Source: a virus. Taken from it: a stretch of DNA of 64,000 nt. The number at the start of each line of letters is the position of its first letter. Position 1 is the stretch's first letter. Made by a program: the position numbers and the translations under genes. Positions 16,703 through 64,000 of the stretch are shown here, piece by piece. The stretch lies in the UHGV virus genome UHGV-0021788; one strand, 5' to 3'. The notes under the pieces were generated by a model. That model ran no database searches, was not told where the DNA came from, and worked only from the letters and a program-made list of their open reading frames with translations.

Positions 16703-17989
16703 TTGGATATATTGGAAACTATTAAGAAAAGTGCATTTCAAGAAATTGGTATTCTTAATGATAATGATTATTTTGATATAGTTACTAATACAAATGTTAA
16801 TAGAAGAATTAAATTTTCAGCAATGAAAGAAGCTATAAATAATAGTGTTAATTCTTATGTCGATGTTAAAGCAAAAAATGGAAAAATTTTCAGATTAACT
16901 GTTAATAATGAAGGGGAAATAATTTGTCAAAATGCTGAAGCATATACTGCTACTGCTCCAGAAAAAACTGAAAGTGGTAGATTTGCTGGTTTAATGATAA
17001 ACATGATATATGGTGGTGGAAATAATAAAAATAATACTGCTTGTTCACATCACTTTATAGAATTATATAATCAAAGTACTAGTAGTATGGATTTAAATTT
17101 AAAAGGACTTTATTTATCTGTTAAAAGTAATACAGGTGATTGGCAATCTCTTGCATTAGAGGGTATAATACCTTATCAACATTCATTCCTTGTAAGATGT
17201 AATCAAGTTTCTAATCCTGTACTATTAGGTACTAGATGTAAAATAGATACATATGACCAAGAATGGAATATAGATTTAACTGATGTAGGATTTAGTGCTT
17301 ATTTATCAATAGGAACACCTACAACTGTTAATCCAGCTAATGCAGATGGTAATATGAATAAAGAAGTTGGATATATAGACTTAATGGGTGCTGGTGGAAC
17401 ACAAGAAACACAAGGAGTTAAAGCTTTTGAAACTGCCTATCCAATGTTGATGACTAAAGATATAGGTTGTAGAAGACTTGACTTTGCTGATACAGATAAT
17501 AATCAAAAAAACTGTAGAGCAATAAATTGGAAAACTTGTGATGTAAGTGTCTATAAACCTAGAAGTGTATCAGATGGTAAATGGGACTTATACTTTAACA
17601 AAGCAAAACTAAAATCTACAATGCCTAATCTAATAAATATGTGTTATGGACAAGATGGTTCTAAAACTAGAACATTTACTTTCCAAACTGTATTAACTGA
17701 TGAAGGTTATATTAAATGGAGAAAATACGGAGAATTAAAATGGAATAAAAAACCTACTACTAAAGAAATAATAACTCACTATGATTGTGATGCTACTTTA
17801 CATAGAGTTTTTATTACTGATTTACAACCTGGAATTTATGAATATCAATGTGGTTCTGAAGGTGCATGGAGTGATATAAGTACTTTTGAAGTAAGAAATT
17901 ATGCACAAACTGCTGATAAAAGTAATTTTGTACATAACGATATAAAAATGTTATGGACTACAGACCAACAAGCATGGACTAACATATAG
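16703..17989 (+). CDS. Exon 1 of a split tail-associated LTD-Fn3-metallophosphoesterase (purple-acid-phosphatase-like) gene. TTG start.
   Basis: RBS AAGGAG before TTG 16703. Lamin-tail-domain-like 'HHFIELYNQSTSSMDLNLKGLYLS'. PAP N-terminal Fn3-like 'HRVFITDLQPGIYEYQCGSEGAWSDISTFE'. Motif-1-like 'FVHNDIKM'. The catalytic domain continues only after the downstream intron. Confidence 0.55.
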   Translation: MDILETIKKSAFQEIGILNDNDYFDIVTNTNVNRRIKFSAMKEAINNSVNSYVDVKAKNGKIFRLTVNNEGEIICQNAEAYTATAPEKTESGRFAGLMINMIYGGGNNKNNTACSHHFIELYNQSTSSMDLNLKGLYLSVKSNTGDWQSLALEGIIPYQHSFLVRCNQVSNPVLLGTRCKIDTYDQEWNIDLTDVGFSAYLSIGTPTTVNPANADGNMNKEVGYIDLMGAGGTQETQGVKAFETAYPMLMTKDIGCRRLDFADTDNNQKNCRAINWKTCDVSVYKPRSVSDGKWDLYFNKAKLKSTMPNLINMCYGQDGSKTRTFTFQTVLTDEGYIKWRKYGELKWNKKPTTKEIITHYDCDATLHRVFITDLQPGIYEYQCGSEGAWSDISTFEVRNYAQTADKSNFVHNDIKMLWTTDQQAWTNI

Positions 17990-18194
17990 TCCCTATATTA
18001 AGTGATTAGTATAGTAAATCCTTTGAATTGCTGGTAAATCCTAAAGCCTTATAAACTACAACATGATTAGAAATAATGAGTGTGAATGTTACGAAAGTAG
18101 AAAAAATTATAAGGATAACATATGGTTAAATCCTAAGTGTTATATACAATGGAAGCTCAGCAGGTAAGATTCTAAATTAAATTATTTTAAATAC

Positions 18195-18223
18195 TTGACT
18201 TTTAATAAGATAAATTGTATAAT
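18195..18223 (+). promoter_or_regulatory. Sigma-A-type promoter TTGACT-N17-TATAAT (TG-extended) driving the intron-encoded HEG.
   Basis: TTGACT 18195-18200, TGTATAAT 18216-18223, RBS GTGAGGTGA, ATG 18246. Confidence 0.65.
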
Positions 18224-18245
18224 ATAAGTAAAGTGAGGTGATAAA

Positions 18246-19160
18246 ATGGGAAGAAAGAAAACACATGAGGAATTTATGAAAGAGTTTTATGAAAAAAATC
18301 CTAATGCTAAAAATATAGAAATATTAGGAAAATATGAAGGTAGAAAAGTAAAAATTTTATGTATGTGTAAAATAGATAACTATAAATGGCATACAACTCC
18401 TAATGGATTATTGGGAAGTAAAAATATTAAACCAAATGGATGTCCGAAATGTGCTGGAAAAATAAAAAAAACACATAAACAATTTATAGAAGAAATGAAT
18501 GAAATAAATCCAAATATTAAAATATTGGGGCGTTACATAGATGCTAAAACTAAGATAGAATGTGAATGTAAAATAGATGGATATAAATGGGAAGTTGAAC
18601 CAACTAATTTGCTACAGAAAAGAGGATGTCCAAAATGTGCTAATAAAATACCTAGAGAACATGATGATTTTGTTAAAGAATTAAATAACATCAATCCTAA
18701 TATAAAAATAATAGGTAAATTTATATCTACTAGAACTAAAATAGAATGTGAATGTAAAATAGATGGATATAAATGGGAAGCTGAGCCAAGACATCTTTTA
18801 GGAAATCATGGATGTCCAAAATGTAATGATTCTATTGGAGAAAAAATAACTTATAATATATTAAATAAATTAAATATAAAAAATATAAGACAATACAAAT
18901 TTAAAGATTGTAAATTTTATAAATGTCTTCCTTTTGATTTTTATTTGCCACAATATAATTGTTGTATTGAAATTGATGGTAAGCAACATGAGAATATAGT
19001 CAAATGGTTTGGTGGGTTAGATGGTTTTATAGATAGAAAAATTAGAGATACGGTTAAAGATATATATTGTAAGAATAATGGAATAAAATTAATTAGAATT
19101 ACATATAAAGATATAAATGAAATAGAAAAAATAATTTGTCAAGAACTTAATTTAAATTAA
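18246..19160 (+). CDS. Intron-encoded homing endonuclease: three tandem CxxC...CPKC zinc-ribbon modules plus a C-terminal Vsr-like/DUF559 PD-(D/E)XK nuclease domain (I-Bth0305I-like).
   Basis: Repeats 'CECKIDGYKWE..LL...GCPKC' x3. C-terminal 'FDFYLPQYNCCIEIDGKQHE...IRDTVKDIYCKNNGIKLIRI'. Confidence 0.6.
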   Translation: MGRKKTHEEFMKEFYEKNPNAKNIEILGKYEGRKVKILCMCKIDNYKWHTTPNGLLGSKNIKPNGCPKCAGKIKKTHKQFIEEMNEINPNIKILGRYIDAKTKIECECKIDGYKWEVEPTNLLQKRGCPKCANKIPREHDDFVKELNNINPNIKIIGKFISTRTKIECECKIDGYKWEAEPRHLLGNHGCPKCNDSIGEKITYNILNKLNIKNIRQYKFKDCKFYKCLPFDFYLPQYNCCIEIDGKQHENIVKWFGGLDGFIDRKIRDTVKDIYCKNNGIKLIRITYKDINEIEKIICQELNLN

Positions 19161-19486
19161 TTTAATATGAATAAACTTCAACGACTAAGTATCCTAGTAG
19201 TCTAGGTAGTGGAGGATACCCTTATTGGGTAATGATATAGTCTGCTCTCATGGGAAACCATGAGCAGTTTTTATGTAAAAAAACGGATAGAATAGTAACG
19301 ATATTCTATTGAACATAAGGTGTTGAGGAATCACAAGCTACTAATGTTTGTTTCCAAAATATAAGTGAATGGGAAAAAGGTACTGATTTTGATTTTCATT
19401 TAAATACAGGCGACATTTCGCAAAATGCAAACAGAAGTTTTGAGTGGAGATACCACTATAAATATGCAGATGACCTAATAAGAACT

Positions 19487-20161
19487 ATGTGTCATCAAAT
19501 AACTTGTGGGAATAATGACTTAATAGATAAGAAATATTCAGATGCATTTACATGGTACATGACACCAGAAGATTATTTCTTACCAGACCAAATAGATAGT
19601 GGTTCAGGTGTTATGGTTAATAATCCTAATAAATGTACTTTTAATTCATGTCATAGTTTTGACTTAGGATATGTACATTTTGTTTGTTTAAATAGTAATA
19701 AAGATTATTCTATGTTTAATGAAAATGAAGGTGAAAAAATAGATGATTGGATACAAAGAGAATGTGCATGGTTAGATGCAGATTTAACTAGAGATGAATC
19801 TAATGCTAAAACAAGATGGGTAATATGTTATATGCATTACGCACCTTTTACAGTATCTAGACCTGACTGGATACAAAGATTTGTTCCTGTATTTGAAAAA
19901 CATAGAGTACATTTAGTATTATGTGGTCACAACCATACAAACTCAAGAAGTATTGTAGTTAGAAGTGGTTATGATGGAGACCCAAATAAAGCAAGCTATG
20001 ACCCTAAAGGTCAAAAAACAGCTGAAGAAGAAACAGCTTTAGGACATGGTACTATAAATCATAATGAAGATTTAAAAAATGGTACTCTTTACCTAATGAT
20101 TAATGCAACTGGATTCAAGAATACAGGTAAAGAAAGTATACAAAATCCTTATCCTTGGTAA
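19487..20161 (+). CDS. Exon 2 of the metallophosphoesterase gene. The ORF-track ATG is internal; the exon probably begins ~19320.
   Basis: Frame open upstream to 19299 with no RBS. Upstream in-frame 'GVEESQATNVCFQNISEWEKGTDFDFHLNTGDISQNAN' (PAP GDxxY-like motif). 'ITCGNND' (GNH[DE]-like). 'LVLCGHNH' (GHxH motif). Confidence 0.55.
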   Translation: MCHQITCGNNDLIDKKYSDAFTWYMTPEDYFLPDQIDSGSGVMVNNPNKCTFNSCHSFDLGYVHFVCLNSNKDYSMFNENEGEKIDDWIQRECAWLDADLTRDESNAKTRWVICYMHYAPFTVSRPDWIQRFVPVFEKHRVHLVLCGHNHTNSRSIVVRSGYDGDPNKASYDPKGQKTAEEETALGHGTINHNEDLKNGTLYLMINATGFKNTGKESIQNPYPW

Positions 20162-20332
20162 AAAAATATTGCCACTTTACATAGTAATATGTAATGACAA
20201 ACTCATTGAATTGCTGGGACGACCTTAGAGCCTTAATGCCACAATATAAGAGAAATCATTATATGAAGGTTTAAAAAGTTTAAGGATTGGTTAATCAGCA
20301 GGTAAGATTCTAAATTAAATTATTTTAAATAC

Positions 20333-20361
20333 TTGACTTTTAATAAGATAAATTGTATAAT
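20333..20361 (+). promoter_or_regulatory. Duplicate of the intron HEG promoter (TTGACT-N17-TATAAT).
   Basis: ~184-bp block 20296-20479 is ~97% identical to 18157-18340 (promoter, RBS, first ~30 codons). Confidence 0.6.
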
Positions 20362-20375
20362 ATAAGTAGAGTGAG

Positions 20376-21299
20376 GTGATAAATATGGGTAAAAAGAAAA
20401 CACATGAGGAATTTATGAAAGAGTTTTATGAAAAAAATCCTAATGCTAAAAATATAGAAATATTAGGAAAATATGAAGGAAACAATAAACCTATTAAATG
20501 TCGTTGCAGAATAGATGAATACGAATGGTATCCAAGACCTTGTCATTTATTGGGAAATAAAAATGCTAAACCTACTGGTTGTCCTAAGTGTAGTGGAAAA
20601 GCAAAAAGAACAAATGAAGAGTTTATTAAGGAAATATATATAATAAACCCTAATATAGAAATACTTAGTGAATATAGTGGAGTTAGTAATTTAATAGATT
20701 GTCGTTGTAAAATAGATGATTATGAGTGGTCATCAATTGCTGATAATTTATTACATGGACATGGTTGTCCTAAATGTGGAGGACAAATAAAAAAGGAACA
20801 TGAAGAGTTTGTAAAAGAAATGGAAGAAATAAATCCCAATATAGAAATACTTGGGGAATACAATGGAGTTCATGAATATATTTTATGTGGATGTAAAATA
20901 TGTAATCATGAATGGACAACTCGTCCTCATGAATTATTAAATGAATACGGATGTCCTTCTTGTAATATATCTCGAGGAGAATTTAAAATAAAAACTTTAT
21001 TAGAAAAATATCAAAAACAATATAAATATCAATATAAATTTAAAGATTGTAAATTTTATAATGAATTACCTTTTGATTTTTATTTACCTGATTATAATAT
21101 TGCAATAGAATATGATGGAGAACAGCATTATAAAATAATTAAACAATTTGGTGGAATAAATAGATTAATAGATAGTAAAATAAGGGATACTGTTAAAACT
21201 GAATATTGTAAAAATAATAACATAAAACTTATAAGAATACCTTATTGGAATTATAAAGATATAGAAAATATACTTATAAAAGAACTTAATTTAAAATAA
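20376..21299 (+). CDS. Intron-encoded homing endonuclease, paralogue of 18246..19160 (Zn-ribbon repeats + Vsr-like/DUF559 domain). The real start is probably ATG 20385.
   Basis: 'ELPFDFYLPDYNIAIEYDGEQHYK...IRDTVKTEYCKNNNIKLIRIPY'. N-terminal 30 aa identical to HEG 18246. Confidence 0.6.
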   Translation: MINMGKKKTHEEFMKEFYEKNPNAKNIEILGKYEGNNKPIKCRCRIDEYEWYPRPCHLLGNKNAKPTGCPKCSGKAKRTNEEFIKEIYIINPNIEILSEYSGVSNLIDCRCKIDDYEWSSIADNLLHGHGCPKCGGQIKKEHEEFVKEMEEINPNIEILGEYNGVHEYILCGCKICNHEWTTRPHELLNEYGCPSCNISRGEFKIKTLLEKYQKQYKYQYKFKDCKFYNELPFDFYLPDYNIAIEYDGEQHYKIIKQFGGINRLIDSKIRDTVKTEYCKNNNIKLIRIPYWNYKDIENILIKELNLK

Positions 21300-21477
21300 T
21301 TTAACATGAATAAACTTCAACGACTATCCTGTAATGGAGTAGGGTTCAAGCGAACTCGAAGTAGTGAGCATCTTAATAAAGATGAAGATATAGTCTAGTC
21401 TCATGGGAAACCATGAGCAGTTTTTGTGCGTAAAAACAAAACGGGTTAGGTGTAGCGAACCTAATTGAATATAACGG

Positions 21478-21691
21478 GTATGGATTAAGAACTTCACATC
21501 CAACACAACCAACTTATGCAACATTAACTATAGGTTGGGATAAGATAGAATATAAATGCTATAAGATAATGAACACATTAAGTAAAGATAGAAACGGAAA
21601 TACAATAGTAGTGCCTTATGGTAGTCAAACTAAAGAATTGTATGATAGTTGTACTCTTAATTGGAGAGCAAAAGGTCAAACACTAATATAG
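21478..21691 (+). CDS. Exon 3 (C-terminal ~70 aa) of the metallophosphoesterase gene.
   Basis: Frame open after TAA ~21446. 'NGYGLRTSHPTQPTYATLTIGWDKIEYKCYKI...NWRAKGQTLI*' resembles the PAP C-terminal beta-strand region. Stop TAG 21689-21691. Confidence 0.45.
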
Positions 21692-21704: not shown

Positions 21705-24380
21705 ATGCCTAATAGAATTTGGAGTGAAGAAAAAAAAGATTGGATAATAGTCGATGAAACAAATTTAGCTACAAATATAGAAGTAATGGATATCAAAGAG
21801 TACTATCATAAAAAGAAAACAGAAGAAGAAACAAAAGATGATGAATTTTTAAGTGTTGAAAAATGCTTAGAACAAATAGGGGATAAAATAAATAATGGTG
21901 ATATAGGTGCTATAGGTGAAATAAAAGATAAAGTACAAGATTTGGATGACAGAGTAACCTATATTGAAGAAAACGGTGGTGGTGGAGGAGGTGGCTCTTC
22001 CATGCCTACCGTTAAACTTCTTAGTGATAGTTATTATGCTATACCAACCGATGGAGAATTAAATATTTATTATAACTTTACTTCTCCAAATATAGGATTT
22101 GGTACAGCATTTATAAGTTTAGACTATGGAACAGCTGAACAGTTATCAGTTGCACAAGGTCGTAATTTTTATACTGTAAAAAACTTAGAAAAAGGTGAAC
22201 ATAGACTAGATATATATGTAACTGATATAACAGGTTTATTCTCGAATACAGTTACAGTAACAATAGTTGTTGGTGGACTTGAATTAACTTCTAATTTTGA
22301 CGATAGTACGGATTTATCCTTAGAGGATTATATTAGAATAAGATATGTTATCTCAACAATATCTTCTAAGCCAATTGAAGTGTCTATTGAAATAGATGGT
22401 AAACTAACAAAAGCAGAAGGTATAATTGGTCAAAATATATTGGAAGTTGGACAGTTTAGTTCATTAGGGGTTCATACAGTTAAAATATCAGCCGTCAGTG
22501 GTGATTTAGTATCAAACCAATTAGTATTTAATTTAGTTGTAGCCGATTCAGAAAATCTTTATGTATCTACTACTTTTCCTGATAATTATACTATACAAGT
22601 AGGTAAAAACCTACAAATTGATTATAGAAATAGTATGGTAAATCAAAATAGATTTATTACTCATATGCTTATAAATGGTACTGAAGTAGATACGGTAACA
22701 TCTTATTCAGGATATAACTATTGGAACGTTGGGTCTAATTTAGAGATAGGTTTATATACTTTAACATTATATTCTACTACATCCGATGGTGCATATACAT
22801 CAAATTATTTAACATGGGTAATAGATGTTGTTTCAGAAGACTATGTTCCCTTTAAGGTTGTAACAGATGGGTTATTATGTAATTTTGATGCTAATGGTAA
22901 TCAACAAACATCTTCTAGTAGAAACATATGGAAAGACGATAGTGGAAACGACGTTAAATGTGAATTGTTTAATTTCAACTATTCTACAAATGGTTGGATA
23001 GATAACAGTTTAGTATTTAATGGTAAAACATATGCTAAAATAGATTTTTCTCCTTTTAGTGATAATATCAAAAATGGTATGACAATTGATATGTTATTTA
23101 AAGTAAAAAATGTTGGTGATATAGACGGAAAAGTATTATGGTGTAAAAATCCAATTACACCTTACCAAGGTTTTTATATAAATACTTATGAGGCAAATTG
23201 TCGTTCTGCCAACTCAAGAATAGTTAGTAACCAATTTCAAGATGACACATGGACTAGAATAACATGGGTTATTAATAGAGAAGATTTGACAATGATAGCT
23301 TATGTAAATGGTATCATAACGAAACCTGTATATATAACAGATACAGAAAACTTTAGAATGGAAAAAGATATTTATCTAGGTGTATCATTTGACGAAGTAG
23401 ATAACAATTTAGATAATGATGGTAATCCAATACCTCACTATGCATCTTGTTCTATAAAAACATTTAGAATATATGATAGAGCATTAACTGATGAAGAAAT
23501 ATTACAAAATCATATTGCCGATATAAAAGATAAAGAAAAACAATTGGAAATAAGAGAAAAGAACTATGGTGATAGTACAATGCCTATCATAAAATTTGAA
23601 GGTAATGTAGAAGGTATGGATGGTAGTATCTATAAATTATTAACAATAGATTATAATGACCCATTAGACCCATCTAAACGTTTTAGACAAGAACAATGTA
23701 GAGTAAAATGGCAAGGTACTTCTTCACTAGAATATCCAGTAAAAAACTATACAATAGAACTTAGAAGTGGTGGTAACGTTTGGGAATATGCTCCTAAAGA
23801 CAATTGGCTACCAGAAAAAAGATATACTTTGAAGGCTTCGTTTATGGATAGTTCTACATATAATAACGTTGGTTCTTCTAAATTAATTTATGATTACTTT
23901 AGAAAATCTAATATGTTTTATCCACAAGAAATTAAAAATCCTAAAACTAGAGCAGTAATAGATGGTTTCCCAGTTAGACTTTATATTAATGGGGAATCAA
24001 AAGGTATATATATGTTCAATATAGATAGATATGCTGAAAACAATTATGGATTTTCTGGGGAATCATCAATTGTATCTTATGAAATAGCTGTCAACTCTGA
24101 AAGTGGTGCTGGTGCTTTCGCATCAGATGCTTGGTCAAGTATACGTTCTGAATTTGAAATGAGATATCATTATGCTGGAGATGAAAGTGTTGTATGTGAA
24201 ACTGTTATGGAAAATGGTGTACCAACTACTGTTTTAAAAGCAGGTTTTCATTCAGAATTACAAAATTTAGTTTCATGGGTATTAAATTCTACTATAGAAG
24301 AGTTTAGAAGTGAATTAAAAGAACATTTTGAATTAAACTTTTTAATAGATTATTATCTATGGGTTCTATGTTTGGGTTAA
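21705..24380 (+). CDS. Exon 1 (891 codons) of a giant CotH-kinase-like / BspA-LRR tail protein. The ORF-track stop at 24378-80 lies in the intron; the exon probably ends at 24377.
   Basis: RBS GGTGGTGATAG. CotH-family region 'MPIIKFEGNVEG...KRYTLKASFMDSSTYNNVGSSKLIYDYF...GFPVRLYINGESKGIYMFNIDRYAENNYGF' ending '..NFLIDYYLWVLCLG'. Confidence 0.55.
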   Translation: MPNRIWSEEKKDWIIVDETNLATNIEVMDIKEYYHKKKTEEETKDDEFLSVEKCLEQIGDKINNGDIGAIGEIKDKVQDLDDRVTYIEENGGGGGGGSSMPTVKLLSDSYYAIPTDGELNIYYNFTSPNIGFGTAFISLDYGTAEQLSVAQGRNFYTVKNLEKGEHRLDIYVTDITGLFSNTVTVTIVVGGLELTSNFDDSTDLSLEDYIRIRYVISTISSKPIEVSIEIDGKLTKAEGIIGQNILEVGQFSSLGVHTVKISAVSGDLVSNQLVFNLVVADSENLYVSTTFPDNYTIQVGKNLQIDYRNSMVNQNRFITHMLINGTEVDTVTSYSGYNYWNVGSNLEIGLYTLTLYSTTSDGAYTSNYLTWVIDVVSEDYVPFKVVTDGLLCNFDANGNQQTSSSRNIWKDDSGNDVKCELFNFNYSTNGWIDNSLVFNGKTYAKIDFSPFSDNIKNGMTIDMLFKVKNVGDIDGKVLWCKNPITPYQGFYINTYEANCRSANSRIVSNQFQDDTWTRITWVINREDLTMIAYVNGIITKPVYITDTENFRMEKDIYLGVSFDEVDNNLDNDGNPIPHYASCSIKTFRIYDRALTDEEILQNHIADIKDKEKQLEIREKNYGDSTMPIIKFEGNVEGMDGSIYKLLTIDYNDPLDPSKRFRQEQCRVKWQGTSSLEYPVKNYTIELRSGGNVWEYAPKDNWLPEKRYTLKASFMDSSTYNNVGSSKLIYDYFRKSNMFYPQEIKNPKTRAVIDGFPVRLYINGESKGIYMFNIDRYAENNYGFSGESSIVSYEIAVNSESGAGAFASDAWSSIRSEFEMRYHYAGDESVVCETVMENGVPTTVLKAGFHSELQNLVSWVLNSTIEEFRSELKEHFELNFLIDYYLWVLCLG

Positions 24381-24469
24381 TACAATGGCTCAAGTAAAAC
24401 TTTCTCTGATTAATGGCGAACACCCTAGTAGAAAAGGGCAACGCTCAAGAAGATTTATTTAACAATATT

Positions 24470-24498
24470 TTGACTTTTAATAAAATAAGTAGTATAAT
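24470..24498 (+). promoter_or_regulatory. Sigma-A-type promoter TTGACT-N17-TATAAT for the GIY-YIG HEG.
   Basis: TTGACT 24470-75, TATAAT 24493-98, RBS AAAGGGGTGA, ATG 24520. Confidence 0.6.
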
Positions 24499-24519
24499 AT
24501 AAATGAAAGGGGTGATACT

Positions 24520-25230
24520 ATGAGTGAAAATAAATATTATGTTTATGAATGGATTAGATTAGACACAAATGAACCATTTTATGTAGGTAAAGGTTGTGGA
24601 GATAGATGGAGGAATTTATATAGGGATTACAATCCTCGTTTTATGAATATAATAAATAAAGTACCAGTAGCAGTATCAATATTAATAAATAATTTAACAG
24701 AAAAGGAATCTTTTGATTTTGAATGTTATTATATATGGTTATATAAAGATATTATAGGATATGATATATGCAATATAAATGAAGGTGGGGAAGGTCAAAG
24801 TTTATGTGGTGAAGCTAATGGTTTTTATGGTAAACATCATTCAGAAGAAACTAAAAAATTATTAAGTGAACAACATAAAGGCATGACTTATTCTCAAGAG
24901 ACAAAAAATAAATTGAGTGCTATGAGAAAAGGTGAAGGGAACGCTATGTGGGGACGTAGAGGAGAATTATCTCCGCATTGGGGTAAAAAATATTCAGAAG
25001 AAAGAAAAAATAATATTAGTAAAGCAATGGGTACTTCTGTAAAGTGTATTGAATTAAATATAGAATTTAATAGTCTTAATAAAGCAGAAAAATATATGAT
25101 TAAAGAATATGATATTAAATTTTCTCATAAAACTTTAAAAGCTACGATAGAAAAAAGAAGAAAAAAAGATTGGTATGGAGAAATAGAAATTAATGGAGAA
25201 TTAATTAAACTTCATTGGGAATATTGTTAA
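24520..25230 (+). CDS. GIY-YIG homing endonuclease with NUMOD3-like repeats (I-TevI-like), intron-encoded.
   Basis: 'KYYVYEWIRLDTNEPFYVGKGCGDRWRNLY' (GIY...YIG...R). Repeats 'GKHHSEETKKLLSEQHKGMTYSQETKNKLSAMRKGEGN'. Confidence 0.75.
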   Translation: MSENKYYVYEWIRLDTNEPFYVGKGCGDRWRNLYRDYNPRFMNIINKVPVAVSILINNLTEKESFDFECYYIWLYKDIIGYDICNINEGGEGQSLCGEANGFYGKHHSEETKKLLSEQHKGMTYSQETKNKLSAMRKGEGNAMWGRRGELSPHWGKKYSEERKNNISKAMGTSVKCIELNIEFNSLNKAEKYMIKEYDIKFSHKTLKATIEKRRKKDWYGEIEINGELIKLHWEYC

Positions 25231-25428
25231 ATAAAATCACTTGCAACGACTGAGTGAGAAAGGCTTAAAGATTAATTCTTTAAGTAAGCAACAGTCTGAA
25301 CTTGCGAATATAATTTCTACAAAAAACAAATCGCAGAAGAGGGGTCATCGGTAATCAGACCGATTAAAGAAGAACCCCTCTCGCCAACTTAGGTTGGTCA
25401 GTAGCCGAAAGGTGAAAGTAACAGAATG

Positions 25429-25446
25429 CTAGTAGACAACTTGGGT
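25429..25446 (+). CDS. Putative 18-nt micro-exon 2 of the CotH/LRR gene (LVDNLG).
   Basis: Sits between the 3' end of intron a (...ACAGAATG) and a second td-like 5' splice context 'CTTGGGT|TTAATGATTTTGGCTCAAG'. Keeps the reading frame. Confidence 0.4.
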
Positions 25447-25693
25447 TTAATGATTTTGGCTCAAGTATAAAATTCTCTCTGATTAATGGCGAACACCCTA
25501 GTAGAAAAGGGCAACGCTCAGGAAGATTTATAAAATCACCTGCAACGACTGAGTGAGAGAACACTTATTTAAGTGAAGCAACAGTCTGAACTGCAAATAT
25601 AATTTCTACAATAACAAATTGCAGAAGGAAGTTGAAGTGCTTCCTCGCCAACTCAAGTTGGTCAGTAACCGAAAGGTGAAAGTAACAGAATTG
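25447..25693 (+). mobile_element. ORF-less group I intron 'b' (247 nt). It is intron a without the HEG cassette.
   Basis: 5' region near-identical to 24381-24460 (IGS GCTCAAG, 'CTCTGATTAATGGCGAACACCCTAGTAGAAAAGGGCAACGCTCA'). R 'CTGCAACGACTGAG' 25530-43. S 'CAACAGTCTGAAC' 25577-89. 3' '..AGTAACAGAATTG'. Confidence 0.6.
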
Positions 25694-25786
25694 AAAAATA
25701 TGGTTTTAACAACTTTCGGTATGAATGCTGAAGGTAACGTAATTTGGTATCCATCCTTTGACATAGGAGGATGTAAAACTCTCTTT
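25694..25786 (+). CDS. Putative 93-nt exon 3 of the CotH/LRR gene (KNMVLTTFGMNAEGNVIWYPSFDIGGCKTLF).
   Basis: In-frame with exons 1/2 and 4. Contains a CotH-family 'N..L....G.W..IPWDLD..G'-like motif (NVIWYPSFDIGG). Confidence 0.45.
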
Positions 25787-26003
25787 AATTGACTTGGAAG
25801 TCCTGAAGAGGACGACAGGGGGCAAGTTTAAATACAGCCTGAACGACTAAACAAGAGAGCATTATCATATTGATAATGATGTGATAGTCTGAACTCTAGT
25901 AATAACTTGTTTTAATGAAACTAGAGAAGGAAATCCGAAGTGTTTTCCTCGCCATAAAATATTATGGTCAGTAGCTTAGGAATAAGTGAAAGTAACAGAA
26001 TGG
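25787..26003 (+). mobile_element. Compact ORF-less group I intron 'c' (217 nt).
   Basis: Begins 'TAATTGACTTGG' (cf. td 'UAAUUGAGG'). IGS 'GAAGAG' pairs with exon 'CUCUUU'. R 'CCTGAACGACTAAAC' 25836-50. S 'GTGATAGTCTGAAC' 25890-903. 3' end '..GTGAAAGTAACAGAATGG' as in introns a and b. Confidence 0.55.
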
Positions 26004-29000
26004 TATGATGCAGACTCAGAGTTGGGTTTAACCAACGATGGTGAGTTAAGATACGGTTCAGGTATCGACACTTTAACAGATAATTTCAATACTTCTGATT
26101 CTAAATTATGGACTAAATTACTAGAAGCTTTCCCAGATGAAGTACAAGCAAGATATATCTATATGAGAAGTAATGGATTTATGACTTATGAAAATATTAT
26201 AAAATATTATGAAAATATAGCAGATACAATTGGTCAAACATTCTATAATGAAGATGCAAGACTTAAATATATTAATGAAGATAATAAATCATTTATTTAT
26301 ATGTGTAATGGTTCAAGACTTGAACATACAAAAAGATGGTTAAGCGAACGTATTGTATATATGGATAGTAAATTTAACTATGGTGATTTCTTATTATCTT
26401 CTACTATACGTTCAAATGTTTCCGGTGAGGTATCATTAAAAGTAAAAACATATTCACCTCAATGGGTAGAAATATCTTTCTCAGATAGTGCTACAGGTAC
26501 AACAAGACAATGGTGTAGTAAAGATAAATGGTATACATTTATAAATACCATTGAAAATGCCGTCGACAACAATATCACCATTAGAGGTGTAACTAATATA
26601 ATGTATTTACAAGGATTAGAAAATTTAAATGTATCTTCTTTACTTGTATCAAATGCAAAAGGTTTATGTGAAATTGATATTCATGGTTCTAAACGTATTC
26701 AAAGATTGGAACTAGGTAACAATATCATGTTACAAAAACTTAATTGTAAAGATTGTATTAATTTAGGTATTGATGATAACTATAAAGTTGTTAACTTGGA
26801 AAAATGTATCAACTTAAAATATCTTGATTTATCTAATACTATGATAGGTACACTTCAATTAAATAAAGATGGTGGTGCATTAGAATATTTAGATTTATCT
26901 GAAACAGAATTAACTTATTTAACTTGTAACCATCAAGAATATTTACCTGAAATAAAATTAGATGGTTGTAAAAATCTATCATCTGTTACTATTAATGGTT
27001 GTAATGCATTAACAAGATTGAGTTTACCTAATACTAAATTAGCTGAATTTACTGTAACAGATTGTAATAGTTTAAATTACCTTGATATATCATATACTGG
27101 TTATTTAGTAAAATTAGATTTAACAGGTTGTAGTAGTTTAACTACTTTAATAATGTCAGGTATAGCAAATAATAAATTTACTGAATTAGATGCGAGAACA
27201 TTAACAAAATTAACAACATTAGATGTGTCTAAATGTTATTTCTTAAATAATATAAGATTTGCTAATGGATATAATGCTTTAACATCTGTAAACTTCCAAC
27301 AAAGTGGGATTAAGACTTTACAGTTTGGAAATAATGAAAAACCTCCTTATTTAGATTTATCTCCATTTAATTTAACAGAAGTTAATTTCTATAACTGTAC
27401 TGAAATAGAATATATTAAAAATATAAAATTATATGCTACAAAATCCATAGAACCTTTTTATAATTGTGTTAATTTACACACTATAGAAGGTACTATAAGT
27501 TTAACTGATGATTTAGGAAGAAGTTTTTATAATTGTAAAAAACTAGTTAATTTACCTACTTTAGATTTAAGTAGAGTTAAAACAGCTTCGGATTCCTTTA
27601 TGCATTGTGAGTCTTTAACTTATGACCAATTACTAGAAATTTTAGGTAAGATGAATAATTGTCAAAGTTTTTATAGAACTTTCCAAAACTGTTTAGCTAT
27701 GGAACATGACGGTTGGGAAAAAGCTTTATTCGATAAGATACCAAAAGCAACTTATTTTTATTGGACATTCTCAGATACTCCAATAAGCGGACAATTAGAG
27801 CAAGGAATCTTTGATAGTTTATTAGATTTACAAACTGTAGATGGATTATTTAGCGGTGGTAAGGCAAAAGGTTATATTCCAGCCAATCTATTCAAATATA
27901 ATACAAAATTACAAAATCTTTGGAATCTATTTAATGGATGTAAAGAATTAGAAACTGCTACTAATATAGTAAACATGTTTACCACTACAGTAGATTTAAG
28001 AGGTATAGAGGGATTATTTAGTGGTTGTACTAATGCTTTTATGAAACTAAGTGATACATGGTTTGCAAATTGTCCAGAGCTACAAAATATGGATTATGCT
28101 TTTGCAAATTGTACAAACTTAATTGGTTCTATAGCTGAAAATCCTCATATGATAAAAAATAAATCTAAATTAACAACAGCAGAACATACCTTCCTTAATT
28201 GTACAGGCATAAGTGGTGATTTACCTGATGATTATTTTGTTGGGTGTACTGCTTTACAAGAAATACAAGGACATTTTCAAGGATGTACTGGTCTAACAGG
28301 AACTCCTAAAACTGAATCATGGATAGATTGTGAAAATATAACTAATGCTTCATATTTATATGCAGGATGTACTGGTTTAGGTGGTATAGCAGGTGCTACT
28401 CAAGAAATACCTAAAGATTTCTATAAAAGAAAATATAGACTTATAGATATATCTGGTATGTGGCAAGGTTGTAATCAACTACAATTTTCTCTAATGCCAT
28501 TAAAAGAAGATAAGTTAGGTGAGGATGGAGCTGTTATAGAAAAAGGGGACGACCCTTGGTTTGTTGATTGTAGACAGTTAGCGAAAATAAATTATCTATT
28601 TGATGGTTGTAGTAATTTATCATCTGTAATACCTTCTAGGTTATTTGAAGTTTGGGATGAAAAAGGCGAAGTAATGGATACACTTATAACAGAAGCTAAA
28701 GCGGTATTTAAAAATTGTCAATTACTTACAGATGAAATACCAGAAAATCTATTTGAAAAATTTATTAAAGTTAGAGATTTAACTGAATTTTTCTATCAAT
28801 GTAGAAGTTTAACTGGTGGTATTCCTGATACATTATTTTCTAATTGTTATTCTTTAGTTTATGCTAATAGAATGTTTATGCGTTGTGGTAAATTAGGAAA
28901 ATATGCAGACCAAGTAACAGAAGAAGAGCCATATTTCTGTAATGAAGAACTATTTTGGAACTGTCCTAACCTATTGGAAATATCTCAATTATTCCATATG

Positions 29001-29396
29001 TATGATGGATGGGGAACTTCTCTAAGAGGAGACATACCTCCATTGTTATTTAGAGCTAATCCTAAATTACAAAATATAAATAATGCCTTTGCTGGTTGTA
29101 GTCTTTTAACTGGTGGGTTGGATGGGCAACTATTTGTTAGAAATGCTAAATTAAAAACTGCTAGAGAAACTTTCCACGGTTGCTCAGGTTTAAATGGAGA
29201 AATGAGTGGAGCGTTATTTACCTCTACTAATAATCCACTTTTAACAGATTTCTATCAAACCTTTCAAAATTGTAAAAATATACAAGGTACTGCACCTTCA
29301 TTATGGACACAATTCTCTAATGCAAATGGTGGAGGATGTTTTAATGGATGTACTAAATTAAGTAATTATGCAGATATACCTTCACAATGGAAATAA
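25986..29396 (+). CDS. Exon 4 of the CotH/LRR gene (true exon start ~26004): BspA-type leucine-rich repeats (LRR_5) and Cys-containing repeats. The GTG 'start' of the ORF track is intron sequence.
   Basis: 'gtgaaagtaacag' before nt 26004 is present in all three intron 3' ends. 'LDLSNTMIGTLQLN', repeated 'F.NC..L' BspA-type LRRs. Terminator after the stop. Confidence 0.55.
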   Translation: MKVTEWYDADSELGLTNDGELRYGSGIDTLTDNFNTSDSKLWTKLLEAFPDEVQARYIYMRSNGFMTYENIIKYYENIADTIGQTFYNEDARLKYINEDNKSFIYMCNGSRLEHTKRWLSERIVYMDSKFNYGDFLLSSTIRSNVSGEVSLKVKTYSPQWVEISFSDSATGTTRQWCSKDKWYTFINTIENAVDNNITIRGVTNIMYLQGLENLNVSSLLVSNAKGLCEIDIHGSKRIQRLELGNNIMLQKLNCKDCINLGIDDNYKVVNLEKCINLKYLDLSNTMIGTLQLNKDGGALEYLDLSETELTYLTCNHQEYLPEIKLDGCKNLSSVTINGCNALTRLSLPNTKLAEFTVTDCNSLNYLDISYTGYLVKLDLTGCSSLTTLIMSGIANNKFTELDARTLTKLTTLDVSKCYFLNNIRFANGYNALTSVNFQQSGIKTLQFGNNEKPPYLDLSPFNLTEVNFYNCTEIEYIKNIKLYATKSIEPFYNCVNLHTIEGTISLTDDLGRSFYNCKKLVNLPTLDLSRVKTASDSFMHCESLTYDQLLEILGKMNNCQSFYRTFQNCLAMEHDGWEKALFDKIPKATYFYWTFSDTPISGQLEQGIFDSLLDLQTVDGLFSGGKAKGYIPANLFKYNTKLQNLWNLFNGCKELETATNIVNMFTTTVDLRGIEGLFSGCTNAFMKLSDTWFANCPELQNMDYAFANCTNLIGSIAENPHMIKNKSKLTTAEHTFLNCTGISGDLPDDYFVGCTALQEIQGHFQGCTGLTGTPKTESWIDCENITNASYLYAGCTGLGGIAGATQEIPKDFYKRKYRLIDISGMWQGCNQLQFSLMPLKEDKLGEDGAVIEKGDDPWFVDCRQLAKINYLFDGCSNLSSVIPSRLFEVWDEKGEVMDTLITEAKAVFKNCQLLTDEIPENLFEKFIKVRDLTEFFYQCRSLTGGIPDTLFSNCYSLVYANRMFMRCGKLGKYADQVTEEEPYFCNEELFWNCPNLLEISQLFHMYDGWGTSLRGDIPPLLFRANPKLQNINNAFAGCSLLTGGLDGQLFVRNAKLKTARETFHGCSGLNGEMSGALFTSTNNPLLTDFYQTFQNCKNIQGTAPSLWTQFSNANGGGCFNGCTKLSNYADIPSQWK

Positions 29397-60557: not shown

Positions 60558-62145
60558 TTATTTATTTGCTTTTCTATATTCATATTCTTCTTTATTTAAT
60601 TCTTCTACTTCTTCTTCATTAAGTAAATGATATTCATCACACCATATTTCAAACTCTCCATTTTGTACCCATTTTGTTTTAGTTATTGTATTTCCATCTT
60701 TGTCTATTGTTTCAACTTCTTTTTTTTCTTTTTTTGCCTTTTGAAACATATGGTATACATTGATTACACTAAATGCTTTAAATGGTTGTGCTTCATAAAT
60801 TCCTTCACCAACTTTTATTTCTATGTTTTTTCCAGTACTTATATTAAAAATCCATGCTTTTTTATTCTTAAATTTGGTTATAACATCAATAACGATACAA
60901 GTTGATGAATCATAATCTTCAAAATAATAATTACATTCTCCAGTCATTTCAAGATTAATTTTAACCTTATCTATTGATGGCATTTCGTTATCTTCTATAT
61001 TCAACATTAATTCATTACATAATTCTAATGCTTTTTCTACTTTATATTGTTTATATTTATCTTCTTTACTTTTTTCAGTTGCATATTTTTCTATTATTTC
61101 TTTAGGATATGGTAGGTCAGCTTTATTAAATGATACTTCACCTTTCTTAGATTTTAATTTTTTACTCATTATTTTTTCATATAAATCTATAATATCTAAT
61201 AATTTTTGTGATTTACCAAATTCATCGAAGAAATCTATTGCTATTAATATATTAAGTTGTCTTGAGTTTATAGATGTTTTATCATTTAAATCAATAAGTA
61301 AATCCATAAAACTATTATATTTATTATCTTTTAACATATATAATTCTTGTGATACTTGTTCATTCATATATTTTATACTAGCCATACCTTTATATATAGA
61401 ATTACTTTCTTTATCCATAAAATATTCAGCTTTAGAATATCTAAATTTAGGTGGTAATAATTTTATATCAAAATAACTTAATTCTTTTATTAGTCTATTT
61501 GTTCTAGTTGAATCATCGGAATAAATAGATAGGGCAACTGTATAATATTCAAGAGGATAATGTGATTTTAAAAATGCTCCATACAGACTATCATAGGCAT
61601 AAGAAAGTGAATGTGAAGCATTGAATGAATATTTTGAAGCATCATTAACTACTTGCCATGTTTCTTCAAATCCATCAATTGAACCAACTTTATCTATCCA
61701 ACCTTTTTTTAATTTTTTTTCTAACTCTATTAATTCTTTTTCTTTAAATTTTTTCTTTGATATTTTTTTAATAATTCCATATGTTTCAGGCTCAGGAATA
61801 CCTAACCATATTAAATATTTCATAATAGATTCTTGATACATCAAATAATGATAACTATCTTCTAACAAATTATCCAATTCTTTTACACCTGTTGTATATG
61901 GTTTTCTTTCTATAAAATTATCTAATAAAGAAGCAAATCCTGGTCTAATTGAAGCAACAAACGCACTCATTTCAGCTACACTAGAAACTTTATATCTTGA
62001 TGCTAAATTAGTTGCAAAATCTGAATCAGATTGATTTATTGTACAAGTTATTTTATCTTCATATATTTTAAATGTTTTTTCATCTAACATTTTTTCTAAT
62101 TCTTTAATAGTCGGTATTTTAATATTAGCTAATTCACAAGTTTTT
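60558..62145 (-). CDS. dnaE: 3' exon of the split dnaE-type DNA polymerase III alpha gene. The ORF track starts at internal ATG 62090.
   Basis: 'SKYSFNASHSLSYAYDSLYGAFLKSHYPLEYYTVAL' (DnaE 'SFNKSHA..YA..Y.TAYLK.HYP' motif). Frame open upstream of the ATG to ~62150, no RBS. Confidence 0.55.
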
Positions 62146-62515
62146 CTTATTAATGTCCAAACTGTAACCGCAAGATACGTTAATACCGTTCCTTTCGGAA
62201 TACTTTAACACCCATTTAAGGGTCGGACTAGACTATACCTTTATCTTCGACATTACTCGTTAAGATATGCCTATTATAGTCGTTGAAGGTTTCCCATTTT
62301 AAAGGGATTTCCCTGCTGATTATCCATTCATTCGCCCTTAGCGCCTTTTACAAGGCTTTTATTTCAGCTTAGGTAATCCTTATAATTTTTTCTGCTTTCG
62401 CAACCATCAAGCTTAATGTCACCATTTACTTTGTGGTTTATAAGGCTTTAGGAACTCCCAGCAATTTAAGGCATCATAATCTACATAATTTCTTATATAG
62501 ACGACTATTAAATTA
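62146..62515 (-). mobile_element. ORF-less group I intron in dnaE, same family as the phosphoesterase-gene introns. Splice sites approximate.
   Basis: On the - strand: P 'AAATTGCTGGGAG' (rc of 62456-68), Q 'AATCAGCAGG' (rc of ~62312-21), R 'CCTTCAACGACTAT' (rc of 62277-90), S 'GGTATAGTCTAGTCC' (rc of 62226-40), 3' end '..TTTGGACATTAATAAG'. Confidence 0.6.
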
Positions 62516-64000
62516 ATCATTCTTTAGATATTTATAAACATCACAATTATAACCATCTAAATTACAACATATTCCTTCTTTAGTTTTTATTAAACCAATT
62601 TCTTCTGAAACATTTTTATCATATAATAACATTGAACAAGGTGATTCTGATATACTTTCTACTACTCCTTTAAATACTTTTGAATCTTTTATTATTTTTC
62701 CCCAATATTCATCATTTTCATATTGTTCTAAATTTTTAGCTATTTCATCATATTTACTAACATGCATATCATTTGCCTTACACCATAGTCTAAAAGCAGA
62801 TGAATCTTGTAAAGGTTTATATGATAAAATCCAAGCACAATTTTCTTCGCCTAATAAATCTTTAGTTGCTTGTATAAATACTGAACGGTCTTCTGTATTT
62901 AAATCTACATCAGGCAATGAACGTGTACCTAATATACGTTCTATACTCATAAATCTAGTTGGATACAATGGAACTGGTGCAGACAATCTATCTATTTCTG
63001 TTAAACCTAATAATTTATTTATAATAAAACTTACAGCTGAATTATGAACTATCATATTATTAAGTAAATAACTATGCTCATTTTCAACTTCTATATCATA
63101 TACTGTGGTTTTTTGTTTAGGTAATATAATGATTTCCTTAATAGGAAGATAATAGTAATTATTATCCTCGAAAGTTCTTTCATTTTTTTTCTGTGAATAA
63201 TTAGAATTTTTATTTAATCTTAATTTATAAGATTCTTTACATAAATACCCTTCTTTCATTTTATGTTCTTTTCTTACGCTTAAACTATTTACTCCTTCAT
63301 CCGTCATTAAACATAATAATTTATATGCGTTTATTAAAGATTTTGAAGTATTATCGAAATTGATTCTATATTCACAAAAGCTTCCATCTGATAATCTTAA
63401 TCCTTTTACTATACCTAATAAATTTTCTTTTGATTGATTAAACCATTTTTCATTAAATATTTTATCTTTTCCTTTTTTAGATTCAAATAATTCCTGTTTA
63501 ACAAAATTACAAAATACTGTAGAATTAATATATAGTTGACTTAATTTTTTAGTTTTACTTACATTTTCATATATAGATTTATTTAATTTAGATGCTATAT
63601 TATAAAATATTTCTCTATTATATTTATCTTTTTCAGTAGTATTGTTTATGGCTAATCCAACACTGGTTTTTTTAGAAGTAAATCCGTCGCCATACATTAA
63701 TCCTATAAATATATTAAATTCTTTATCTATTTCAATATATCTTTCTAATTTTGAAAATTGTTTAGATTTAACATATTTAGAATATTCTTCTTGGGTATTA
63801 AAAGGTATATAATCCATTAAAGCTTTATATTTATCTTTTTTCCTATTAAAACAATTTTTTTTCATATTTGCAAAATTTTCTACTAATGACTTACCAACAC
63901 CTATTTTTCTTGCAACATCACTAGGAGAATATTTATAAATAGTATTAGTTTTTTCATATATATATTTATCATCAAAATCAAATCCGTTGATATTATAATC
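62516..64000 (-). CDS. dnaE: 5' exon segment of dnaE, 5'-partial at the window edge. Contains the C-terminal part of an intein and the downstream extein.
   Basis: Extein 'SAVSFIINKLLGLTEIDRLSAPVPLYPTRFMSIERILGTRSLPDVDLNTEDR' (pol III alpha core). Frame open to nt 64000. Confidence 0.55.
63041..64000 (-). mobile_element. Intein with a LAGLIDADG homing-endonuclease domain inside dnaE. The N-terminal splice junction lies beyond the window.
   Basis: LAGLIDADG-like 'IFIGLMYGDGF' and 'LGIVKGLRLSDGSF'. Intein C-terminus 'YDIEVENEHSYLLNNMIVHN|S' (His-Asn + Ser+1 at 63038-63043). Confidence 0.6.

Follow-up and report, generated by a model that had tools for sequence, protein, structure and literature searches.

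Three predicted group I introns within one CotH-like tail-module gene of virus genome UHGV-0021788

Known clusters of group I introns in phage genes

Several phage genes that carry more than one group I intron have been described, and here we compare with them a locus in virus genome UHGV-0021788, where three putative group I introns (introns a, b, and c) appeared to interrupt one CotH/LRR tail-module gene. The stretch of DNA that was analyzed, called the window below, was 64,000 nucleotides (nt) long. Among the closest described systems was orf142 of Staphylococcus phage Twort, which, according to the summary of Landthaler & Shub 1999 given in PMC10136302, contained three group I introns and a 23-nt internal exon and showed exon skipping. 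The same source described skipping across a 34-nt exon in the Coxiella 23S rRNA. Phage genes with two and three introns were reported in the Bastillevirinae (PMC11878797), the human-gut "Jug" jumbo phages were reported to carry 18.5 group I introns per genome on average (PMC12880540), and introns were found in capsid and tail genes of cluster J mycobacteriophages (PMC3706429).

The locus in the window resembled Twort orf142 in that three introns were clustered in one late gene and two highly similar introns flanked a very short exon. As far as the summarized account of Twort goes, the two systems differed in intron type (IA2 in Twort, a family without P2 and P7.1/P7.2 in the window), in the length of the short exon (23 nt in Twort, 18 nt in the window, where the flanking pair also shared guide sequence and exon hexamer), and in the host gene, which had 142 codons in Twort and 2049 codons in the window, where splicing was predicted from sequence. 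The T4 td/I-TevI system offered a second likeness, namely, a phage protein gene with a free-standing homing-endonuclease open reading frame (ORF), of GIY-YIG type in T4 and putatively so in the window, that had its own expression signals and was located in P6. T4 td is an IA2 intron with P2 and P7.1/P7.2, all of which were missing from the window introns, and in contrast to I-TevI, the window endonuclease reached the NUMOD3 and phrog_314 profiles but not the Pfam GIY-YIG cut-off. The 5' splice context of T4 td, UUGGGU/UAAU (a slash within a sequence marks a splice junction), is presumably equal to that of introns a and b.

Like the Bastillevirinae and Jug phages, the window had genes with two to three group I introns, a genome rich in introns, and endonucleases of the phrog_314 and phrog_559 types; the genes named in those reports encoded DNA polymerase, terminase, nrdD, and thymidylate synthase, whereas the gene in question here was a CotH/LRR tail-module gene (PMC11878797, PMC12880540). 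The window had a GC content of 24-29% and at least six introns, and the protein encoded by the first exon was found in assemblies from the human gut, some of whose contigs measured 0.2-1 Mb. The window may belong to a clade of such intron-rich gut jumbo phages.

This locus is a well-supported case of intron crowding in phage genes, and it is not unprecedented. An earlier note on this DNA, made from the letters alone, had stated that no phage structural gene with three clustered group I introns and an 18-nt exon was known; Twort orf142, with three introns and a 23-nt exon in the summary of PMC10136302, and the multi-intron genes of PMC11878797 and PMC12880540 contradicted that statement. The accepted picture of phage introns was unchanged by the findings below. 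What is particular to the window is the CotH/LRR host gene, the 18-nt exon, the tandem pair of introns that share a guide sequence, and the membership of the introns in a family scoring below the Rfam threshold.

The interrupted gene and its predicted product

Comparison with uninterrupted homologues suggested that ORFs 21705-24380 and 25986-29396 were the two ends of one 2049-codon gene with three group I introns inside its CotH domain, a reading to which we assigned a probability of about 0.88. The segments of the gene were placed as follows.

21705..24377 (+): exon 1, the start of the CotH/Laminin_G/LRR tail-module gene, ending TGT TTG GGT (…LCLG); from the ORF list, Pfam CotH 2-182, Laminin_G_3, and phrog_9915 16-852; homologues run on in frame
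24378..25428 (+): predicted intron a, group I, 1051 nt, with an endonuclease gene in the P6 loop; omegaG at 25428
25429..25446 (+): predicted exon 2, 18 nt, CTAGTAGACAACTTGGGT, encoding LVDNLG
25447..25693 (+): predicted intron b, 247 nt, no ORF; omegaG at 25693
25694..25758 (+): predicted exon 3, 65 nt (66 with the splice site shifted downstream by one base), encoding KNMVLTTFGMNAEGNVIWYPS and containing positions 1 and 2 of the junction codon
25759..26002, alternatively 25760-26003 (+): predicted intron c, 244 nt, no ORF; omegaG at 26002 (or 26003)
26003..29396 (+): exon 4, encoding the remainder of the CotH domain and an LRR/BspA-like C-terminal part; from the ORF list, Pfam LRR_EndoS and related families, and phrog_9915 874-1531

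Conceptual removal of the three introns joined the four exons into a protein of 2049 amino acids (aa) with a single stop codon and with Laminin_G-like, CotH-like, and LRR regions. The predicted junctions were TTTGGGT/CTAGTAG between exons 1 and 2, ACTTGGGT/AAAAATA between exons 2 and 3, and CCATCCTT(T)/(G)TATGAT between exons 3 and 4, and the first three exons formed the string TGTTTGGGT/CTAGTAGACAACTTGGGT/AAAAATATGG. When the spliced product was searched against Pfam CotH (PF08757), as the earlier note had proposed, the match covered profile positions 2-299 of 322 and scored 58.4 bits, above the cut-off of 23.8, so that the product is CotH-like by profile; ORF 21705-24380 alone matched positions 2-182. 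The score was 52.6 bits with the splice sites chosen in the earlier note, 41.8 bits with exon 2 skipped, and 31.1 bits for the first ORF alone. Similarly, exons 1 and 4 matched successive parts (16-852 and 874-1531) of PHROG 9915, a single profile of 1813 positions.

Uninterrupted homologues ran through all three sites, which agreed with the idea, raised in the earlier note, that three introns split one CotH/LRR gene. Among cultured phages, the nearest homologue of the spliced product was gp353 of Bacillus phage G (AEO93612.1), a protein of similar length (2055 aa) whose gene was uninterrupted and whose function was unannotated. The gp353 gene aligned with a 423-aa segment spanning the junctions as one tblastn piece, with 55% identity over 99% of the segment. 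Across the junctions gp353 read ...MVDNLGKNMVLSTWGKNSQGNTVWYPSFYDVDS, within the wider stretch ...HLIDYYLIAYVFGMVDNLGKNMVLSTWGKNSQGNTVWYPSFYDVDS..., and the metagenomic relatives L125 to L128 read ...LGLVDNLGKNSVWTTFGMNAQGNVIWYPSFYDCDS. Seven more distant CotH proteins also aligned over the region without gaps. The LCLG/LVDNLG/KNMV junctions, which were those given in the earlier note for introns a and b and the 18-nt exon, were gap-free against all of these proteins, with LVDNLG or MVDNLG at the position of exon 2. In the exon 3 region, the homologues read ...GKN......W(Y/I)PS(L/F/M)YD.DS and had no insertion.

Directly upstream of gp353 was gp352, a metallophosphoesterase, and the same neighbor was present in the window. 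Upstream ORFs in the window matched tail-fibre and tail-protein PHROGs and an endolysin lay downstream, so it was reasonable, on the basis of these neighbors, to place the host gene in a tail and host-interaction module.

Introns were present or absent at the three sites as follows.

Window: site a, intron with endonuclease gene; site b, intron; site c, intron
L001: site a, empty; site b, intron; site c, intron
L129: site a, empty; site b, intron with endonuclease gene; site c, intron
L002: site a, empty; site b, intron with endonuclease gene; site c, empty
L125-L128: sites a, b, and c, empty; a fourth site, TLKAC/FMDSS, filled by an intron of the same family that carried an endonuclease gene and had P1 formed by AGCCUGU and GCAGGCU

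Thus, empty alleles were known for every one of the three sites. Site a was empty in L001, L002, L129, L125, and phage G, and was filled only in the window lineage. The intron at the fourth site of L125 (12125-13293) carried a GIY-YIG/NUMOD3 endonuclease gene and was located upstream of the CotH core. L125 had no intron at the three window sites, and the host gene is a repeated target of the intron family.

A single metagenome scan yielded two loci, among them L129, which was decisive for the ends of intron c. A protein-pattern scan of IMG/VR for exon 4 relatives found none, and megablast of 23800-26600 against GenBank phages gave no match. The sequence of L003 departed from the others after ...NVVW and was not interpretable.

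The reading of one gene changes the annotation. Gene callers gave an 891-aa protein, an endonuclease, and a 1136-aa protein with a GTG start in place of what was predicted to be one 2049-aa protein, and the same mis-annotation was repeated in the public predictions P0001 to P0012. The GTG "start" of ORF 25986-29396 was located inside the repeated intron 3' motif; as the earlier note had argued, the annotated start at 25986 is not real.

Structure and family of the introns

Three copies of a repeated 3' module were located within 1.6 kb, as the earlier note had observed, and were recovered as direct-repeat families D3-D6 and D9. Together with D1, the near-identical 5' modules of the first two copies (95% identity), these families connected the three intron segments. 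The 13-mer GTGAAAGTAACAG occurred in the window only at 25412, 25676, and 25986. The R-like and S-like elements of the earlier note, AACGACT(G/A) (that is, AACGACTG/A) and A(C/T)AGTCTG, were found once in each intron segment. All three introns ended ...AACAGAAU(U)G, a 3' motif kept in the family members listed, and in all three the U at the end of the 5' exon paired with a G of the guide sequence. Every intron could be folded into P1 and P3-P8, including a pseudoknot of P3 and P7, followed by a P9 domain that was extended.

The three introns very probably self-splice, as judged by sequence comparison. By established group I chemistry, exogenous GTP would attack the 5' splice site and the freed exon would then attack after omegaG. 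The three ribozymes would work independently on one transcript, with the 18-nt and ~65-nt exons kept, and the endonuclease of intron a would presumably drive homing at the DNA level.

TTGGGT was present immediately before 24378 and 25447, and GCTCAAG was present 10-12 nt downstream of each, as in the earlier note. In the case of intron a, P1 was formed by exon positions 24371-24377 (UUUGGGU) and the internal guide sequence at 24388-24394 (GCUCAAG), with the pair U24377.G24388 at the splice site; P3 was located at 24400-24406/25256-25262 and P7 was located at 25248-25252/25292-25296. The exon 1/intron a junction was reproduced in two other assemblies, L132 and L133, where it was identical to the window over 189 nt. 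These two 5.6-kb contigs, which came from independent gut assemblies, ended ~180 nt into intron a and appeared to have just one of the metallophosphoesterase introns, of which the window had two (see below). Assemblies of this phage are probably broken up by its repeated intron sequences.

Intron b, which like intron c had no ORF, as the earlier note had stated, formed P1 from 25440-25446 (CUUGGGU) and 25459-25465 (GCUCAAG). Its other helices were P3 (25473-25479/25555-25561), P4 (25488-25491/25515-25518), P5 (25496-25499/25508-25511), P6 (25519-25522/25539-25542), P7 (25547-25551/25582-25586), P8 (25562-25566/25571-25575), and a P10 of AUUUU and AAAAU. The minimum-free-energy (MFE) fold recovered P1, P3-P6, P8, and the P9 hairpins (z = -2.3). 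A compensatory change was observed in P1 of this site: the window had UUGGGU with GCUCAA, and L001 had CUCGGU with GCCGAG. The exon change in L001 was synonymous (AAU CUC GGU), and the guide sequence followed it.

The wider family was represented by an alignment of 26 ORF-less, independent phage introns from IMG/VR contigs. The alignment contained P3, P4, P5, P6/P6a, P7, P8, P9.0, and four P9-region hairpins; 96.6% of its cells were paired, and compensatory changes were found at 30 of 49 pairs. The covariation score was 0.496, compared to 0.08-0.10 when the partners were slid, and none of 500 shuffles reached 0.496. The helix order, P3-[P4-P6]-P7-P3'-P8-P7', was that of the group I pseudoknot, and P3 and P7 were within the covariation set. 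The closing pair of P7 alternated between G-C and A-U across the family; the two P9.0 pairs (UG/CA) were invariant, and covariation was uninformative there. Two helices were revised. RNAalifold proposed that a long UCUG/CAGA helix closed the 3' domain; this helix was cut to the 2-bp P9.0 because two of its columns belonged to P7. ACUUG/CAAGU as P4 of intron c was dropped for CUUG/CAGG with GGGC/GCCU as P6, because a G-C pair became A-U there in L054 and the revised choice agreed with the family covariation.

Model R1, a 114-position core covariance model, was built from these unrelated metagenomic phage introns and contained no window sequence. It matched the core of intron c at 25774-25894 (111.3 bits, E = 3e-20) and that of intron b at 25468-25591 (91.4 bits, E = 3e-16), and in intron a it gave one match in the 5' half and another in the 3' half. 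Because a model without window sequence gave these scores, the three-copy signal was well beyond chance. Covariance models folded the cores and the spliced product aligned with homologues across the junctions, two of the points on which the earlier note had staked its claim.

The Rfam group I model, RF00028, shared the helix order of the window introns, and conserved elements in J6/7-P7 (AACGACUA) and J8/7-P7' (GAUAGUCU) were as in that model. The search with RF00028 that the earlier note had suggested was negative at the gathering threshold, both in the whole window and in 17 loci holding family members, and gave sub-threshold matches when ~270 nt were searched alone (intron b, 25.6 bits, E = 9e-5; intron c, 18.5 bits, E = 0.011). 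The alignments of introns b and c ran from end to end of the model and had the helices in the same register, with P1 of intron c at the revised place given below. The family had no P2, so that an A-rich joiner and P3 came directly after P1, and no P7.1/P7.2, with only 3 nt (AGU or AAC) between P7 and P3'. IA introns have P7.1/P7.2 at this place, and P2 is usual in IA2; the family was therefore not IA2, the type named in the earlier note.

The family 3' motif, GTCAGTARC...GTGAAAGTAAYAG, was found in at least 120 IMG/VR phage contigs (L005 to L124), so the compact family was common in uncultured phages. Many of these contigs were 80-200 kb long, and the introns were located in many different genes, with the signature ...CGCC-hairpin-GGUCAGUA(G/A)CC-hairpin-GGUGAAAGUAACAG-N2-5-G. 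By blastn with intron b and with a family consensus, the family was nearly missing from GenBank phages, two unannotated records being the sole matches, and there seems to be no curated model for it. Because its scores fall below the Rfam threshold, the compact family will be overlooked when introns are counted with RF00028. In L054 (1834-2522), an RF00028-detectable intron was followed directly by a member of the compact family, and in L059 (4500-5225), two family members were separated by an exon of ~230 nt; thus, the tandem arrangement was not unique to the window.

For intron c, the earlier note had paired GAAGAG with an exon CUCUUU ending at 25786. In the family fold, CUCUCUU (25779-25785) was the 5' strand of P3, which paired with AAGAGAG (25853-25859), and GAAGAGG was the loop and 3' strand of P5, so the 5' end had been set 27-28 nt too far downstream. 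The revised P1 paired CAUCCUU(U) at 25752-25759 with GGAGGAUG at 25766-25773, the core pairing being 25752-25758 (CAUCCUU) with 25767-25773 (GAGGAUG). The remaining helices were P4 (25793-25796/25816-25819), P5 (25800-25804/25809-25813), P6 (25820-25823/25837-25840), and P7 (25845-25849/25885-25889). All of the family base pairs formed (49/49), and the MFE fold supported the revised P1 (z = -2.7). Among relatives, P1 of this site was CAUCCUU with GAGGAUG, CGUCCUU with GAGGACG, or CUUCCUU with GAGGAAG; at one pair, which followed the third base of a proline codon, the window had A-U, L004 had G-C, and both L001 and L129 had U-A.

The ends of intron c were unambiguous in L129 (...TCCTT/TAAATG... 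and ...AACAGAATTG/TTATGAC), so that the 5' splice site came directly behind the next-to-last U. The predicted 5' splice site of intron c in the window is after 25758 or 25759, not 25786; exon 3 was therefore 65-66 nt and 22 residues long in either register, rather than 93 nt and 31 residues, and the protein was 2049 aa rather than 2058 aa. Register 25759-26002, with the junction CCATCCTT/GTATGATGC, gave ...WYPS-L-YDADS, the sequence of the intron-less allele L002, and this register (Leu) was favored by homology to L129 and by the common AACAGAAUG end. Register 25760-26003, with the junction CCATCCTTT/TATGATGC, gave Phe, as in L125 and phage G, and was favored by P1/P10 continuity (CAUCCUUU.UAUG versus CAUAGGAGGAUG). 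In L004 (230-300), intron c ended ...AGTGAAAGTAATAGTTGTGGCAGAC, and no G-terminated 3' splice site gave the conserved YD codons in frame; the copy may have decayed, or the sequence may reflect a deletion or a faulty assembly.

Alternatives, origin of intron a, and other introns

Several points weighed against the reading of one gene with three functional introns. The case for splicing came from comparing sequences. RF00028 gave no group I match in the 1.8 kb from 24300 to 26100 at E <= 10, and the matches to introns b and c, which were obtained only in the ~270-nt searches, were below the gathering score of 50. Intron a was essentially without P10, introns a and b had an identical guide sequence, which made mis-pairing and exon skipping possible, and the boundaries of intron c were ambiguous by one base. 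In addition, the N-terminus of the intron a endonuclease had no Pfam GIY-YIG match even at E <= 10, and the endonuclease had no sequence match in PDB.

Some of these points would also be expected if the introns had decayed and could no longer splice, which would leave a broken pseudogene or separate N- and C-terminal proteins. We considered this very unlikely, because the core helices were intact in all three copies, all exons were in frame with conserved residues, and the architecture was kept in the independent assemblies L001, L129, L132, and L133. Moreover, P1 followed synonymous exon changes, which argued for selection for splicing, and the split was inside a single CotH domain, so that the halves would be incomplete domains. 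The anatomy of the earlier note, with intron c after 25786, a 93-nt exon 3, and a 2058-aa product, kept the frame open and still gave a substantial CotH score. There was hardly any chance that it was correct, however: it inserted 9 aa (FDIGGCKTL) that were absent from all homologues, close or distant, it put the 5' strand of P3 into the exon, and it gave a lower CotH score than the revised splice. Model R1 and RF00028 both began the ribozyme core upstream of 25786, and the intron c ends in L129 pointed to the upstream site. This anatomy would produce the junction ...AAAACTCTCTTT/TATGATGC, as opposed to ...CCATCCTT(T)/(G)TATGATGC for the revised splice.

The 18-nt exon could be skipped because both UUGGGU hexamers are open to pairing with intron a as well as with intron b, so the main product might join the 5' site of intron a to the 3' site of intron b, or both isoforms might be made on purpose. 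The guide and exon sequences (GCUCAA and UUGGGU) were identical at the two sites, the frame was kept after skipping, and there were documented precedents in Twort orf142, whose 23-nt exon lay between similar introns in the account summarized, and in the 34-nt exon of the Coxiella 23S rRNA (PMC10136302). Set against this were the conservation of LVDNLG in all homologues and the cost of its loss (16.6 bits of CotH score), and skipping, as the main outcome or as one of two intended isoforms, was judged very unlikely. That the a/b tandem was an assembly artefact of near-identical repeats, as the 89-95% identity of the 5' modules and the breaks of the short contigs L132 and L133 inside intron a might suggest, appeared highly improbable. 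The two introns clearly differed in P8, P9, P9.1, and the presence of an endonuclease gene, the exon 1/intron a junction was free of mismatches in two other samples, and the 18-nt exon exactly filled what the homologues required at that position.

The relationship between introns a and b suggested how intron a arrived. The two were 89% identical in the 5' half and 75% identical in the 3' half, the 3' module of intron a was 82% identical to that of the site-b intron of L002, and intron a was preceded by a second TTGGGT, 18 nt upstream of that of site b. Because intron a was a near-copy of the site-b lineage, shared the guide GCUCAA, followed a second TTGGGT, and had almost no P10, it most likely descends from that lineage, through ectopic insertion where the sequence complements the guide. 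A more specific version, which we regard as tentative and rather doubtful, is that intron a represents a recent intragenic transposition, in which an endonuclease-bearing site-b intron was copied 18 nt upstream, to the only nearby UUGGGU complementary to the guide. If this version were true, the locus would carry a signature of ectopic integration guided by P1 pairing (spread of the reverse-splicing type) rather than of endonuclease homing, and would thus bear on the ways in which introns arrive at new sites. It would also provide a natural tandem pair of introns with the same guide, in which skipping of the 18-nt exon may yield a second isoform.

The endonuclease gene of intron a and a promoter-like site were placed as follows.

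24470..24498 (+): promoter-like site, TTGACT-17-TATAAT, upstream of the endonuclease gene, with 11/12 consensus positions
24520..25230 (+): homing-endonuclease gene, 236 aa, with a GIY-YIG-like N-terminus and NUMOD3 repeats, in the P6 loop of intron a

The earlier note had described a promoter-equipped GIY-YIG gene here. The endonuclease gene was supported by matches to Pfam NUMOD3 (E = 5e-12) and to phrog_314 "homing endonuclease" (E = 1e-18), and the promoter-like site was present; Pfam did not detect a GIY-YIG domain. Intron endonucleases from L002 and L125 could be aligned with the protein, and that of L125 scored 26.7 bits against the Pfam GIY-YIG cut-off of 22.6. The strict pattern TTGAC-N17-19-TATAAT had three occurrences in the window (18195-18223, 20333-20361, and 24470-24498, plus strand). 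These were nearly identical 29-mers, TTGACTTTTAATAA(G/A)ATAA(A/G)T(T/A)GTATAAT, and each was located just upstream of an intron-borne endonuclease ORF. This pattern suggests a predicted common, dedicated promoter for intron endonuclease genes.

Two of these sites belonged to the metallophosphoesterase gene at 16709-21688 (+), which was 764 aa long and uninterrupted in L125 and had its window exons at 16709-17980, 19322-20158, and 21479-21688. Its two introns, ~1.3 kb each, were of another type, in which an insert separated P7 from P3'; their cores lay near 19180-19240 and 21319-21395. Each carried a phrog_559-type endonuclease ORF (18246-19160 and 20376-21299), and both were missed by RF00028 at the gathering threshold. 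An insert of ~30-40 nt between P7 and P3' was found in window introns at 19180-19240, 21319-21395, and 62236-62284. The last of these positions lay in an ORF-less group I-like element at 62091-62512 (-), which contained ...CUUCAACGACUA...GGUAUAGUCUAG... and separated two ORFs that together resembled a single gene for DNA polymerase III alpha (DnaE-like). Specifically, ORF 60558-62090 matched finger and HHH domains, and ORF 62513-63865 matched an NTPase domain and also showed a weak Intein_splicing match.

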